This document shows positions 62,632 through 63,614 of a stretch of 64,000 nucleotides of DNA, one piece after another. The DNA comes from an uncultured Candidatus Saccharibacteria bacterium (GTDB lineage Bacteria > Patescibacteriota > Saccharimonadia > Saccharimonadales > CAZDQS01): NCBI GenBank assembly GCA_964507855.1, contig CAZDQS010000001.1, positions 230,121 to 294,120 of the forward strand. The letters are read 5' to 3'. Under the pieces are notes generated by a model, which saw only the letters and a program-made list of their open reading frames with translations, did no database searches and was not told where the DNA came from. How positions within the stretch are numbered: position 1 is the first letter of the stretch; each line of letters starts with the position of its first letter. A program made the translations under genes and the position numbers.

Positions 62632-62638
62632 AAACAAG

Positions 62639-62665
62639 AACTCCCTTTTTGGGAGTTTTTGTTTT
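62639..62665 (+). terminator. Rho-independent terminator after tRNA-Lys(CUU)
   Basis: AACTCCC TTTTT GGGAGTT TTTGTTTT. Confidence 0.7.
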
Positions 62666-62804
62666 GGCTGCCACCGAGGCACGGTTCCGGGACTTGGCTG
62701 CGAAGCAGACAATAGTCCCGGGTTCGCTCGCAAGTCACGCCTGCAGAAGCTTGCTTCGAGGACGTGGCGCAGCCGTGTCTTTAGGCAGTCCCGGATGGCC
62801 CTCT
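62666..62804 (+). repeat. Degenerate tRNA-Lys 3' third with T-loop insert (type II module)
   Basis: ..CCGGGAC TTGGCTGCGAAGCAGACAATA GTCCCGGGTTCG[insert with CGCCTGCAGAAGCTTGCTTCGAGGACG]TCCCGGATGGCCCTCT. Homolog of 7167..7300(-). Confidence 0.55.
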
Positions 62805-62818
62805 AAGTATAAGCATTT

Positions 62819-62845
62819 AGACCTCAGTTCATCTGAGGTCTTTGT
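62819..62845 (+). terminator. Terminator hairpin after the type II module
   Basis: AGACCTCAG TTCAT CTGAGGTCT TTGTT. Confidence 0.55.
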
Positions 62846-62851
62846 TATACT
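62843..62851 (+). promoter_or_regulatory. Extended -10 (TGtTATACT) 6 nt before the ATG at 62858
   Basis: tgttatact, then aggtgg, then ATG. Confidence 0.45.
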
Positions 62852-62857
62852 AGGTGG

Positions 62858-63319
62858 ATGAACTCGCCTACATTGTTTCAGTACTGTCAAAAACTTATAG
62901 TACTTTCAGATGACAAAACAAAAGTTTTATTAGCAAAACGCAAGGGTGAAGCTGATTACGATGGTGTTTACTCATTCATTGGCGGAAAGATGGAAACGAC
63001 AGATGAGACACTTTTGGCAGGTATGAAGCGGGAAAAAGATGAAGAAATCGGCAAAGATGCAAAAATAGCAGTATTGCCCAATGAAACGTACAATCTGCTT
63101 TTTCGCAAAAAAGATGGAAATTGCATGGTCTTACCTCACATTGCTAGTATTTTTGTTTCAGGCGATATTAAACTGAACGAAGAATACAGCGACTACAAGT
63201 GGATTACATTGGACAAACTTGAAGAATTTCAGCCAAAGATCGAAAATATCCCTGAGCTTGCAAAATGGGCTCATAAGAAGCTACAAAACCTAAAGATTGA
63301 TCAGCTGGTACAAATATAA
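62858..63319 (+). CDS. NUDIX hydrolase (low-GC cassette)
   Basis: Nudix box GGKMETTDETLLAGMKREKDEEIG; about 38% GC by eye. Confidence 0.8.
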   Translation: MNSPTLFQYCQKLIVLSDDKTKVLLAKRKGEADYDGVYSFIGGKMETTDETLLAGMKREKDEEIGKDAKIAVLPNETYNLLFRKKDGNCMVLPHIASIFVSGDIKLNEEYSDYKWITLDKLEEFQPKIENIPELAKWAHKKLQNLKIDQLVQI

Positions 63320-63410
63320 CTTCTTGGATTACTCATAAGATTAGTAGAGACTGAATCTACTACAGCCCTCCATACAAAATGCCTCACGATAAGTGGGGCT
63401 TTTTGTATGG

Positions 63411-63553
63411 CAAGACTACAAGCTGGGATTCGAACGGGTTTGCCGGTGGCAAACCCCGGACCCGAAGCCACAAAGTTGCTGGTAGCAAGTTTGCGGTGGA
63501 GTAGGCCAGCACATTTTGTGCTCGGCCCCAGGCGAATCCCATATGGCCCTCCA
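63411..63553 (+). repeat. tRNA-Lys-derived module with an inverted T-arm copy at the 5' end and a direct 3' end copy
   Basis: CTGGGATTCGAAC.. (reverse complement of the T arm) ... hairpins ... GGCGAATCCCATATGGCCCTCCA. Confidence 0.5.
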
Positions 63554-63614
63554 AATTGATTCATTTAAATTATACGAGTTCCCAAAATGGCCCTCCAGGC
63601 ATAAGAACTATGAA

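Follow-up and report, generated by a model that had tools for sequence, protein, structure and literature searches.

The region downstream of tRNA-Lys(CUU) in the 64-kb stretch of DNA analysed here (the window) belongs to a cassette array that is anchored on this tRNA gene, of which it forms the part closest to the tRNA. The layout is lineage-wide, and the GC-rich stretches between the copies of the tRNA 3' end are two structured RNA families, X and Y, whose members are 3' fragments of tRNAs interrupted in the T loop by an insert. The array was probably built by serial site-specific insertion at the tRNA 3' end, catalysed by an enzyme encoded elsewhere. After tRNA-Lys(CUU), the units were found in the order Y' (a Y module), a NUDIX cassette with a diverged cassette-end repeat (REP), X' (an X module), a 44-nt mini-unit and a SnoaL cassette:

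62506-62534 (+), promoter-like site TTGAAA-17-TAGAAT, TG-extended, 5' of tRNA-Lys(CUU) (consensus scan)
62555-62631 (+), tRNA-Lys(CUU) with encoded CCA, the array anchor (ARAGORN; Rfam, 71.4 bits); copy 1 of the repeated motif is formed by its final bases, GATGGCCCTCCA
62629-62667, bidirectional terminator palindrome that includes the CCA, CCAAAACAAGAACTCCC..GGGAGTTTTTGTTTTGG, at the 5' edge of the inserted Y' unit (self-complementary blastn and terminator scan)
62661-62805 (+), Y' module, non-coding and structured (nhmmer match to the Y family, E = 2e-32)
62806-62857 (+), 5' edge of the NUDIX cassette: AGTATAAGC trailer, terminator 62819-62841 and extended -10 sequence TGTTATACT
62858-63319 (+), NUDIX hydrolase ORF of 153 aa, the cassette cargo (Pfam PF00293, E = 9e-13)
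63340-63372 (+), diverged REP of the NUDIX cassette, ATTAGTAGAGACTGAATCTACTAC-AGCCCTCCA, copy 3
63370-63410, bidirectional terminator palindrome CCATACAAAATGCCTCAC..GTGGGGCTTTTTGTATGG, homologous to 7346-7299 (blastn, self-complement match and terminator scan)
63413-63553 (+), X' module (nhmmer, X family, E = 4e-18 and 4e-14)
63554-63597 (+), 44-nt mini-unit with the 3' end AAATGGCCCTCCA, copy 5
63598-64000 (+), next cassette: GGCATAAGAAC trailer, terminator 63612-63635 and a SnoaL_2-like ORF

The SnoaL_2-like ORF starts at 63656 and continues past the end of the window; the contig of L013 carries AHSA1, DUF1801, Rce1-like and DUF5995 genes beyond the SnoaL_2-like gene. A near-copy of the body of the mini-unit (63554-63597) lies 3' of the next gene, as seen in L013. 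The strain of the window is present in the SRR70829xx samples.

The initial annotation of this DNA proposed that the 3' end of tRNA-Lys(CUU) recurs four more times within 1 kb. A search of the plus strand for GGCCCTCCA with up to one mismatch located the copies at 62623, 62797 (GGCCCTCTA), 63364 (AGCCCTCCA), 63545 and 63589, in agreement with this proposal, and the Poisson probability of five same-strand tail copies in 975 bp was ~5.5e-8. A 9-mer with one mismatch is common window-wide: 17 matches were observed on both strands of the 64-kb window versus 12.3 expected, and 10 of 100 shuffles reached 17, as would be the case if a short motif recurred by chance in a GC-rich spacer and the terminators merely looked alike. 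However, the chance explanation is refuted by the clustering on one strand, by the blastn matches between the two Lys loci (E = 2e-8 and 1e-5) and by the arrays in other genomes, the family being conserved in dozens of them. The annotation also placed a hairpin and a T-run after each copy. A terminator scan detected them after copies 1, 2, 3 and 5 (62639-62657, 62819-62841, 63381-63399 and 63612-63635), but there was none behind copy 4 (63545-63553), from which copy 5 starts 35 nt on.

The Y' module is composed of a hairpin, the 5' strand of a T stem followed by TTCG, an insert of ~65 nt, TCCCGG and ATGGCCCTCTA (copy 2, 62795-62805); it is homologous to 7305-7166, and its fold has a z score of -2.2. 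The terminator and Y' together (62632-62805, 174 nt) are missing from L138, the closest relative, whose NUDIX is 84% identical and whose order is tRNA-Lys(CUU), AGCATAAGC-terminator-promoter, NUDIX, REP, terminator and X. In an explicit pairwise comparison, the flank after the tRNA of L138 matched the window from 62806, that is, after Y' (47/60, score 31), versus a score of -7 against the window flank directly after the tRNA. The segment 62806-62857 is orthologous to the sequence immediately 3' of the tRNA in L138. Because NUDIX directly follows the tRNA in L138 and the flank there matches the sequence after Y', the two genomes represent a filled and an empty site, and Y' entered precisely at the CCA junction as an insertion of 174 nt. 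In addition, the T stem of Y' is compensated, being CCGGG/CCCGG versus CTGGG/CCCAG in the host tRNA, and CTA is found in place of CCA. Therefore, Y' was not made by copying the adjacent tRNA.

The extended -10 sequence TGTTATACT is located at 62843-62851, and its final base is 6 nt ahead of the NUDIX ATG, which is an arrangement of the leaderless type. The GC content of the NUDIX ORF was 0.37-0.39, whereas that of the stretch over Y' was 0.58 and that of X' was ~0.51-0.52; both the promoter of its own and the lower GC content relative to the flanks had been predicted for this gene. The prediction that NUDIX is a cassette bracketed by copies of the tRNA end was borne out as well. Its diverged REP occupies the same position as the canonical REP, TTAGTTGCGATAGCGTCCACGAC-GGCCCTCCA, that follows NUDIX in L138, and it is similar to the AGTCCTGATAAGCTCCAC variant of L005/L035. 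NUDIX is present at both isoacceptors, in the tRNA-Lys(UUU) array of L005/L035 and in the tRNA-Lys(CUU) arrays of the window and L138. The nearest relatives with NUDIX at tRNA-Lys retain the repeats, which is the opposite of what would have refuted the initial annotation. The synteny of NUDIX is not conserved. The sources of the 673 NUDIX homologues name Saccharimonadia; NUDIX is a common gene of Saccharimonadia, present without repeats in L009, L010 and L012, and was thus rejected as an exotic cassette gene.

The partner locus, which is anchored on the other tRNA-Lys isoacceptor gene of the window, contains the following:

7530-7606 (-), tRNA-Lys(UUU), the anchor (ARAGORN, Rfam)
7339-7470 (-), canonical X module, GCGTGTCCTGGG-TGAGA..(core 7449-7358)..CGAATCCCAGTGGGCCCTCCA, the first row of the X alignment A3 (nhmmer, E = 5e-22; fold z = -3.2)
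7299-7346, bidirectional terminator (stem 7312-7330), homologous to 63365-63412
7166-7305 (-), Y module with the 3' end ..TCCAGTGGGCCC (nhmmer, E = 2e-32; fold z = -5.0)

Formal alignment of the two Lys loci by blastn gave similarity above chance: 62714-62764 matched 7248-7198 (84.6% over 52 bp, E = 2e-8), and 63365-63412 matched 7346-7299 (79% over 48 bp, E = 1e-5). The latter match confirms the proposed homology between the terminators at 63381-63405 and 7306-7330. X, Y and the bidirectional terminator are all common to both loci, and the same module set is accordingly present at two tRNA-Lys isoacceptor genes, as the initial annotation had claimed.

A genome scan with GGCCCTCCARRCATAAG yielded at least 119 stretches; 66 of the loci were assigned to Saccharibacteria, and these included 38 genuine tRNA-Lys ends and ~45 non-tRNA copies with a common conserved left arm. 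The REP at the ends of coding cassettes is AGTTGCRATAR-N5-ACKRT-GGCCCTCCA (32 nt), and the position matrix of 98 distinct REPs has conserved blocks at -21..-11 and -5..+8. Arrays headed by tRNA-Lys or its tail repeats were found in 35 of the 66 Saccharibacteria loci, a frequency that is biased upward because the loci were chosen by the motif. A REP was located within 3 kb behind tRNA-Lys for 28 of 43 genes, and every REP (146/146) was on the tRNA strand. The cassettes (n = 81) had a median length of 679 bp, with one ORF in 52 and two ORFs in 20. Eighty-six of the cassette ORFs were on the plus strand and 16 on the minus strand, and the REP remained on the tRNA strand even with an opposite-strand ORF. 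The stop codon of the cassette ORF was situated within ~45 nt of the REP or inside it, and the cassettes had their own terminator and a TGnTATAAT-like box 6-12 nt 5' of the ATG. Upstream of the tRNA were conserved core genes (FolD, MurD, MurI, RimK and DnaJ, by sequence features). The downstream cargo was variable and included Phd/YoeB and RelB/YafQ toxin-antitoxin pairs, MazG, radical SAM, methyltransferase and barstar. The RelB/YafQ cassette holds rank 1 in L113 and L133 and later ranks in L029 and L054, and it also occurs in L036, where the array is seen without its tRNA. A search of the literature on tRNA-Lys, cassettes and integrases in Saccharibacteria, T-loop insertions, and tRNA-like ncRNA of Patescibacteria gave no description of the arrays or of X and Y.

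REP shares just ~10 nt of identity with the tRNA, and its left arm, of non-tRNA sequence, recurs in conserved form in many genomes and with unrelated cargo. A mutual information analysis of the 98 REPs gave only neighbour effects. A hairpin of RNA or DNA was ruled out by this lack of covariation, and REP was for the same reason treated as a sequence motif. Copies of REP inside one genome have terminator and promoter sequences that are common and lineage-specific (e.g. L020, L105 and L132). Therefore, homologous recombination or gene conversion could explain much of the shuffling.

No tyrosine recombinase was detected by jackhmmer with E. coli XerC/XerD seeds in the 64-kb window or the 66 Saccharibacteria loci (~0.5 Mb). 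In 656 kb of metagenome loci, just two tyrosine recombinases were found near X (L241 and L181), and a large serine recombinase was found beside an X module in a single case (L179). An apparent cluster of serine recombinases near X was mostly antisense translation of X, the gene in L179 being the only real one. ORF clustering of the array and X loci gave no recurrent recombinase, and neither a primase, a helicase nor an excisionase was present among 20 Pfam-scanned ORFs from array loci and the window. No copy of REP, X or Y was found in 2.9 million viral contigs, and the candidate viral or vehicle matches L135 and L142 were chance or coding matches. A phage or plasmid vehicle was rejected on the basis of these empty scans of viral contigs.

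These searches bear on the alternative that the arrays are decay products of integrase-bearing prophages or integrative elements, which would have entered tRNA-Lys repeatedly, with the classical attL/attR duplication, and then been lost almost entirely, so that only att scars and some cargo would remain and no dedicated cassette system would exist. Direct repeats of partial tRNAs and integration in tandem at tRNA genes are the standard signature of such elements (10.1101/2020.12.28.424599), NUDIX and the next ORF are lower in GC than their flanks, and recombinases do lie near X in L179, L241 and L181. Yet the ~0.5 Mb of array loci searched by jackhmmer contained no integrase fragment, the units are gene-sized (median 679 bp) and regular across 35 loci, and the non-tRNA left arm of REP is conserved over many genomes with unrelated cargo. 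Random decay is also not expected to leave the stop codon so regularly within ~45 nt of the REP or inside it. We consider decay an unlikely origin of the arrays, which are better explained by serial insertion.

Besides X' and the module at tRNA-Lys(UUU), nhmmer detected three stretches with X sequence in the window:

34843-34975 (+), 23-nt copy of the 5' part of tRNA-Pro(UGG) (CGGGGATTGGCGCAGTTGGCTAG) joined to an X core, with the intact tRNA-Pro at 35017
42303-42434 (+), X module right after tRNA-Arg(UCU), with the Arg-type tail TCGAGTCCCTCCCGGGGTACCA
57660-57760 (+), diverged X-like core after tRNA-Arg(UCG) and its terminator (E = 1e-11)

The X domain is ~95 nt long, has four helices and interrupts the T loop, or in some cases the D loop, of partial tRNA copies that neighbour intact tRNAs. 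It occurs in at least 120 metagenome contigs next to tRNAs of ~25 identities. In the X alignment, 97.7% of the cells were paired, compared with 24-45% in slid controls. Compensatory changes were found at 21 of 31 pairs, with double changes in 393 cells, and none of 500 shuffles reached the observed values. G.U pairs were kept, for example in 82 of 98 sequences at one pair. When 62450-63700 and 7100-7700 were searched against Rfam 15 (gathering thresholds and E <= 10), only tRNA passed, and all else scored at most 28 bits. X is thus a new, strongly covarying RNA domain with a sense-strand structure and without an Rfam match. X' contains an inverted piece of the T arm, CTGGGATTCGAAC (63423-63435), followed by an X-type core of three hairpins and CGAATCCCATATGGCCCTCCA (63533-63553, copy 4), and it folds with a z score of -2.5 and a 9-bp closing stem. 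Y behaves much like X in that it, too, interrupts the T loop of tRNA fragments next to intact tRNAs; compensatory changes were seen in it by eye, in an alignment of only 10 sequences.

X and Y always run in the direction of the tRNA, and their 3' end is the neighbouring tRNA's own tail. The tails of X modules are of the Arg type in the window and of the His, Val, Gln and other types elsewhere; therefore, one sequence-specific enzyme cannot account for every unit. X was rejected as a tRNA intron, with excision restoring a complete, foldable tRNA in just 3 of 129 copies (L164, L250 and L153) and the rest lying in fragments. It was also rejected as an attP arm beside an intact T arm, because it is embedded in the T loop and has tRNA sequence to its left and right. 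The tRNA terminator and X often have between them an inverted, degenerate copy of the 3' portion of the tRNA, giving a direct-inverted-direct order. Where X is upstream of the tRNA, the duplicated segment takes in the untranscribed promoter, and L163 repeats a 29-nt stretch with TATAAT. No promoter was evident in front of X or Y in the scan, and ORF clustering gave no recurrent gene family near X modules besides artefacts.

The covariation of X (21 of 31 pairs compensated, G.U conserved) suits a function at the RNA level, in which the tail-plus-terminator modules, X and Y would be transcribed elements for 3' processing, stability or decoy that mimic the T arm, the acceptor 3' strand and CCA, and the arrays would grow mainly by duplication and gene conversion. 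So do the tRNA direction of X and Y with the tail of the neighbouring tRNA at their ends, the terminator behind all tails in the window except one, and the homogenisation of the tail and terminator copies within genomes. On the other hand, REP gave no covariation in the mutual information scan and stays on the tRNA strand despite 16 opposite-strand ORFs, Y' is an insertion with a non-host T stem, and no promoter is evident ahead of X or Y. This explanation, to which we attach a low probability, accounts for the upkeep of the units but not for the arrival of unrelated genes between the repeats.

RNA 3' ends that finish in CCA are the points where the reverse transcriptase of the Mauriceville retroplasmid starts or switches. 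An enzyme of this kind could concatenate copies of transcripts, with junctions right after CCA. All units indeed meet at the 3' end of a mature tRNA, also where the tail of X is of the Arg, Val, His or Gln type, and the direct-inverted-direct arrangement of the tRNA 3' part resembles a snap-back product. However, the duplications upstream of the tRNA include an untranscribed promoter (29 nt with TATAAT in L163), and in an untargeted clustering of ORFs no gene family besides artefacts recurs near X. CCA is not diagnostic of template switching, because it is genome-encoded here. Template switching is accordingly quite improbable as the source of the arrays.

In the serial insertion that we favour, small DNA units would enter singly, exactly at the mature 3' end of the tRNA (..GGCCCTCCA|). 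Each unit would start with its own terminator, joined in coding units by a TG-extended -10 box for a leaderless ORF, and would end with a copy of the tRNA tail. Because of this tail copy, the tRNA would stay intact, older units would shift distally, and same-strand tail copies would punctuate the array. Coding cassettes would end in REP, and X and Y in a longer tRNA 3' fragment with a structured RNA domain in its T loop. The most likely catalyst would be a site-specific recombinase or integrase whose gene lies at another place in the genome or on a helper element. Several results count against serial insertion: jackhmmer detected no tyrosine recombinase in the window and the 66 loci, REP, X and Y were missing from the 2.9 million viral contigs, the tails of X are of too many tRNA types for one sequence-specific enzyme, REP and the tRNA share only ~10 nt, the REP copies could have been shuffled largely by homologous recombination or gene conversion, and the array frequency is biased upward. 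A broader and more tentative proposal is that Saccharibacteria, and probably other Patescibacteria, possess a gene capture system that has not been described before and to which no integrase is linked. It may use tRNA ends and loops as universal docking sites, with the integron-like Lys array and its 32-nt repeat as one part and with X and Y, set into the T loop of tRNA fragments that flank intact tRNAs of most identities on one side or both, as active parts in mobility rather than passengers. X and Y might then act as a ribozyme, as an RNA of the guide or bridge type that pairs with the target through its tRNA-derived tail, or as a recognition module for an enzyme in trans.

Saccharibacteria live as epibionts, and their genomes, of ~1 Mb, contain few mobile elements that can be recognised. 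If true, a tRNA-anchored array without an integrase would locate their flexible gene pool, which comprises toxin-antitoxin pairs, nucleotide-cleansing enzymes such as NUDIX, MazG and HIT, and small unknown proteins. REP would provide a simple sequence handle for cataloguing this pool in metagenomes, as attC does for integrons. X is an abundant, strongly supported RNA structure without a family, and its partial tRNA copies may be misread by annotation pipelines. If X or Y acts in mobility, this would be a new way to exploit tRNA genes; otherwise, they are still new RNA classes.

The arrays resemble integrons in having a fixed entry point followed by gene-sized, mostly single-ORF and mostly co-oriented cassettes, a conserved repeat at the cassette end that often overlaps the stop codon, and the same cassette at varied ranks. 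The repeats are homogenised by lineage, as in the chromosomal integrons of Vibrio, and many of the cargo genes encode toxin-antitoxin pairs or small proteins without a known function. In contrast to integrons, the entry point here is the 3' end of a tRNA rather than attI beside intI, and jackhmmer with XerC/XerD found no intI-like gene in the 66 loci and the window. Furthermore, the 98 REPs have neither an attC-type imperfect palindrome, a GTTRRRY core nor paired columns, each cassette has a terminator and a promoter of its own and does not depend on Pc, and some units are non-coding structured RNAs.

Integrase-less, att-flanked units that are mobilised in trans are known as cis-mobilisable elements and as the Xer-dependent pdif modules of Acinetobacter plasmids. 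Like these, the present arrays consist of small modules of cargo between putative recombination sites, and the enzyme would be supplied in trans. The REP and core consensus, however, does not contain a dif-like dyad (a 28-bp site with two 11-bp arms and a 6-bp spacer); GCATAAGC, which can follow the CCA, is no more than a quasi-palindrome and does not occur in every case.

Tycheposons of Prochlorococcus are tRNA-targeting integrative elements that form tandem arrays (10.1101/2020.12.28.424599). They share with the present arrays a specific tRNA target, partial tRNA copies that flank the elements and are scattered over a variable island in a streamlined genome, and, if insertion is serial, the distal displacement of older elements by later integrations. 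The direct repeats of part of the target tRNA that flank tRNA-targeting elements are found here as well. The units described here are smaller (0.15-1 kb versus several kb), no integrase was found in them by jackhmmer and no replication gene among the 20 ORFs scanned with Pfam, and REP units share ~10 nt with the tRNA and carry a conserved non-tRNA arm with every repeat. The introns in tRNAs of Patescibacteria are group I introns located in the anticodon loop (10.1101/2025.07.03.662931). X differs from them in its length of ~95 nt, in matching neither group I introns nor any other Rfam family, and in its position in the T loop (sometimes the D loop) of partial copies, and it shares with them a structured RNA domain that interrupts tRNA sequence within the same phylum.

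The initial annotation had described four further copies of the tRNA 3' end behind tRNA-Lys(CUU), each followed by a hairpin, together with modules shared with tRNA-Lys(UUU). The array behind tRNA-Lys(CUU) (locus B) and its partner behind tRNA-Lys(UUU) (locus A), which include members of two families of structured non-coding modules, X and Y (X' and Y' at locus B), were organized as follows.

Units of loci B and A, in order from each tRNA
62555-62631 (+): tRNA-Lys(CUU)
directly after the tRNA (+): palindromic terminator including the CCA
62661-62805 (+): Y', with tail copy ATGGCCCTCTA at 62795-62805
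between Y' and NUDIX (+): trailer, terminator and −10 box
62858-63319 (+): NUDIX gene (PF00293)
63340-63372 (+): short repeat ending in tail copy AGCCCTCCA (63364-63372), then palindromic terminator
63413-63553 (+): X', with tail copy ATGGCCCTCCA at 63543-63553
63554-63597 (+): 44-nt mini-unit, with tail copy ATGGCCCTCCA at 63587-63597
after the mini-unit (+): trailer and terminator, then SnoaL-like ORF
7530-7606 (−): tRNA-Lys(UUU), followed by a terminator
7470-7339 (−): X, followed by a terminator
7305-7166 (−): Y

All five tail copies were present, but terminator-like hairpins were found only 3' of copies 1, 2, 3 and 5, and none followed copy 4. The tail 9-mer with one mismatch allowed is not rare in the window (17 matches against 12.3 expected); the occurrence of five copies on one strand within 975 bp had a P value of ~5.5e-8, and chance recurrence was excluded. 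A blastn comparison of the region with the window confirmed that the two Lys loci share, besides the tRNA itself, two stretches: 62714-62764 with 7248-7198 (84.6% identity, E = 2e-8) and 63365-63412 with 7346-7299 (79% identity, E = 1e-5). The NUDIX gene was low in GC (0.37-0.39, compared with 0.58 over Y' and ~0.51-0.52 over X') and had its own promoter, TGTTATACT, the last base of which lies 6 nt 5' of the ATG, as annotated. The initial finding is real, and its interpretation was essentially right.

Read outward from the tRNA, both loci are strings of units, every one of which ends in the tRNA tail. Further small accessory genes follow the SnoaL-like ORF on the same contig (L013, beyond the window). 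The body of the mini-unit recurs there after the SnoaL gene (L013 1249-1382, just past the window end; GCCCCTCCA-gttgattcatttaaactgtacaaaatcccaaATGGCCCTGAGG), so that the 44-nt mini-unit is a repeat in its own right. In other genomes, RimK, a small membrane ORF and tRNA-Lys(UUU) follow one another in this order, all on one strand (L017 4955-5574), whereas in the window (6647-7606) the membrane ORF (6647-7132, +) has the opposite orientation to tRNA-Lys(UUU), X and Y. This arrangement suggests that the segment comprising tRNA-Lys(UUU) and its units was inverted.

The NUDIX protein had 673 homologues, and their named sources were Saccharimonadia or Saccharimonadales. At the locus of its closest relative (L138, 84% identity), the order was tRNA-Lys(CUU), AGCATAAGC trailer-terminator-promoter, NUDIX, the canonical repeat TTAGTTGCGATAGCGTCCACGAC-GGCCCTCCA, a palindromic terminator and an X module. 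The 60 nt 3' of the L138 tRNA aligned with the window after Y' (47 of 60 identical, score 31), whereas no alignment was obtained with the window directly after the tRNA (score −7). This match shows that Y' and its leading terminator (62632-62805, 174 nt) were inserted precisely where the CCA ends, and that the NUDIX-repeat-terminator-X block is inherited. The T stem of Y' (CCGGG/CCCGG) shows a compensated difference from that of the host tRNA (CTGGG/CCCAG), and Y' ends in CTA; therefore, Y' was not copied from the neighbouring tRNA gene. In L005 and L035, NUDIX (80% identical) is the third cassette behind tRNA-Lys(UUU), with two HIT genes before it and RelB/ParE and APH after it, and the tail-trailer-terminator-promoter punctuation around it is kept. 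The initial annotation had named close relatives carrying NUDIX without the repeats as evidence that would count against it; L138 and L005/L035 keep the repeats, and the genomes in which NUDIX has no such flanks (L009, L010 and L012) are more distant, so that its reading stands. In the cassettes, a TG-extended −10 box is joined directly to the T-run of the terminator before it, and the ORF begins 6-12 nt further on (window 62843-62860 and other cassette starts); this implies that cassette mRNAs would be leaderless or near-leaderless, without a Shine-Dalgarno sequence.

A scan for GGCCCTCCARRCATAAG in one genome per species yielded at least 119 stretches. Sixty-six loci were classed as Saccharibacteria from sequence context, in agreement with most of the record titles listed, and the other stretches look like chance matches in other phyla. 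At the Saccharibacteria loci, 38 copies were the ends of genuine tRNA-Lys genes (CUU or UUU), with AGCATAAGCAYTATGAAAGAC and a terminator behind them, and ~45 copies lay outside any tRNA and had a common left arm. A profile search for this cassette-end repeat (REP) gave 98 distinct copies with the consensus A-N4-AGTTGCRATAR-N5-ACKRT-GGCCCTCCA-A, which was conserved at the sequence level, mutual information revealing no paired columns. Locus maps contained either tRNA-Lys followed by REP-separated cassettes (e.g. L065, L099, L054, L133 and L106) or array interiors (L036, L122, L105, L024, L070 and L073). REP had the orientation of the tRNA in 146 of 146 matches. The cassettes (n = 81) had a median length of 679 bp and contained one ORF in 52 cases and two in 20; 86 ORFs ran in the same direction as the tRNA and 16 in the opposite one. 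REP occurred within 3 kb downstream of 28 of the 43 tRNA-Lys genes with enough 3' sequence, a fraction biased upward by the motif-based selection of loci. For the 59 REPs lying behind an open frame of 60 codons or more on the plus strand, the stop codon lay within ~45 nt upstream of REP or inside it, most commonly as TAG at −22 (15 cases) or a stop at −28 (9 cases).

The core genes FolD, MurD, MurI, RimK and DnaJ, assigned by sequence features, were conserved upstream of the tRNAs, and the cargo included Phd/YoeB and RelB/YafQ pairs, MazG, a radical SAM protein, a methyltransferase and barstar. The RelB/YafQ cassette opened the array in L113 and L133 and came further back in L029 and L054, whereas in L036 it lay in the interior of an array for which no tRNA was visible. 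Within one genome, the ~90 nt of REP, trailer, terminator and promoter were near-identical among cassettes (e.g. L020, L105 and L132). In L024 (1546-4126), a two-cassette segment (orf171 and orf130, two REPs) is present twice in tandem in one array, consistent with recombination between repeats.

The sequence right of the CCA was the tRNA's own trailer (AGCATAAGC..), a sequence containing the reverse complement of the trailer 14-mer (ATACGCTTATGCTT..), or a palindromic terminator with symmetry back over the CCA (CCA..TGG, up to CCTCCA..TGGAGG). The 14-mer occurs in both orientations relative to the core (CCA-AGCATAAGCACTAT and CCA-ATACGCTTATGCTT), and the quasi-palindrome GCWTAWGC might be a protein-binding site. 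Post-tail terminators are bidirectional (window 62629-62667, 63370-63410, 7299-7346 and 7490-7538, and many other loci), and the palindrome runs past the A and T tracts and takes in the tRNA end itself. Because the T-run side would lie outside the tRNA transcript, this symmetry may be a DNA-level feature.

Both X and Y have a high GC content and more stable folds than shuffled sequence (z = −2.2 to −5.0), and both read as a tRNA 3' part (variable loop, T stem, acceptor 3' strand and CCA) in which the T loop is interrupted by an insertion of 65-95 nt. The insertion point of Y is after GGGTTCG of the T loop; members of this family follow tRNAs of Lys, Val, Gly and Phe identity, and L167 has the order tRNA-Lys(UUU)-X-Y, as in the window. 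An nhmmer search with the first X copies as query detected three extra modules in the window.

Additional X modules in the window (nhmmer)
42303-42434: X module directly after tRNA-Arg(UCU), with Arg-type tail CCCGGGGTACCA
34843-34975: X module with a 23-nt copy of the tRNA-Pro 5' end in front; intact tRNA-Pro 42 nt on
57660-57760: diverged X-like module after tRNA-Arg(UCG)

A Ham1-family ORF (42440-42982) begins 5 nt after the Arg-type tail. A small GIY-YIG ORF (56508-56915, −; PF01541, E = 3e-5) separates tRNA-Arg(CCG) from tRNA-Arg(UCG). The X-like module at 57660 is ~750 nt away from this ORF, and the GIY-YIG family did not recur near X elsewhere.

The X core pattern was found in at least 120 metagenome contigs, where X adjoins tRNA genes of ~25 identities. 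In one arrangement, an intact tRNA and a terminator are followed by the variable loop and T-stem 5' strand, X, and the rest of that tRNA (remaining T loop, T-stem 3' strand, acceptor 3' strand and CCA); in the other, X is preceded by a promoter and tRNA positions 1-53 and followed by a few more tRNA bases and then the intact tRNA. Many tRNAs are flanked by X at either end, and X units also occur in tandem. The stretch from the tRNA terminator to X often contains a degenerate copy of the tRNA 3' part in inverted orientation (L173, L155 and L153; window 7470-7525 and 63413-63435), and the tRNA pieces around X are thus arranged direct-inverted-direct. An origin of the units by reverse transcription would fit this arrangement as well as the exact CCA boundaries, but is very unlikely, being contradicted by the duplicated promoter sequence in L163.

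RNAalifold analysis of 98 X sequences predicted three hairpins, with double changes keeping 18 of 26 pairs. In a 31-pair structure, 97.7% of cells paired, compared with 24-45% when partner columns were slid, and compensatory changes were found in 21 pairs and 393 cells; none of 500 shuffles reached any measure. One pair was G.U in 82 of the 98 sequences, and the conserved G.U pairs point to X working as an RNA of the tRNA-sense strand. X had no match in Rfam. Deletion of X restored a tRNA in just 3 of 129 cases, and X is therefore not an ordinary intron. The sole clearly intron-like case is L164 (12580-12700), where X lies near the anticodon region inside an otherwise complete tRNA-like gene with acceptor and T arm intact; after removal of X, ARAGORN predicted a tRNA (Pro-like in some splice offsets). 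In L179, a large serine recombinase gene (1246-2949, oriented coordinates; N-terminal ..CRVSTKGQ..) ends next to an X module whose tail is of the tRNA-Lys(UUU) type; this 8.6-kb locus lacks an intact tRNA and is the only such case among the matches listed (~120 loci). X is a new structured RNA housed in tRNA T loops. A purely RNA-level role of the modules would suit X and Y, yet it is improbable for the arrays, since REP lacks covariation and keeps its strand whatever the ORF direction, and the Y' insertion does not fit such a role.

The filled and empty sites, strict polarity, gene-sized units, conserved non-tRNA arm and reshuffled cassette order argue for insertion unit by unit at the tRNA 3' end, in which the tail would be regenerated each time; such insertion by a catalyst encoded elsewhere is moderately probable. 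The partial tRNAs are accounted for by the decay of classical integrated elements, but such decay is an unlikely source of the arrays because the regular unit size, the conserved arm and the lack of integrase debris are all left unexplained. Neither the window nor ~0.5 Mb of array loci yielded an Xer-like recombinase, recombinases near X were only sporadic in 656 kb of metagenome loci, and a search of viral contigs found nothing, which is why the catalyst of unit-by-unit insertion is placed elsewhere. The tails of X and Y match the identity of the neighbouring tRNA, so that their spread would need one of the following candidate routes: a structure-directed mechanism, one duplicating its target, or homologous (Campbell-type) integration of circles with an X-interrupted tRNA. 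In addition to insertion, the arrays are probably subject to RecA-dependent shuffling and gene conversion.

These observations lead to a cassette system that extends across the lineage and is apparently undescribed, and to two new families of RNA, with a mechanism that we infer. No published description of the arrays or of X and Y was found in a literature search of incomplete coverage, and an earlier description is possible. Among known systems, integrons come nearest, together with tRNA-targeting elements in tandem, for example tycheposons. A linked integrase, a defining feature of both, was not detected at the array loci, REP had no attC structure as in integrons, and Pfam detected no hallmark genes among the 20 ORFs scanned from the array loci and the window. 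The locus was therefore filed under neither, and the proposed mechanism would be a hybrid that combines the logic of integrons with tRNA-targeting integration.
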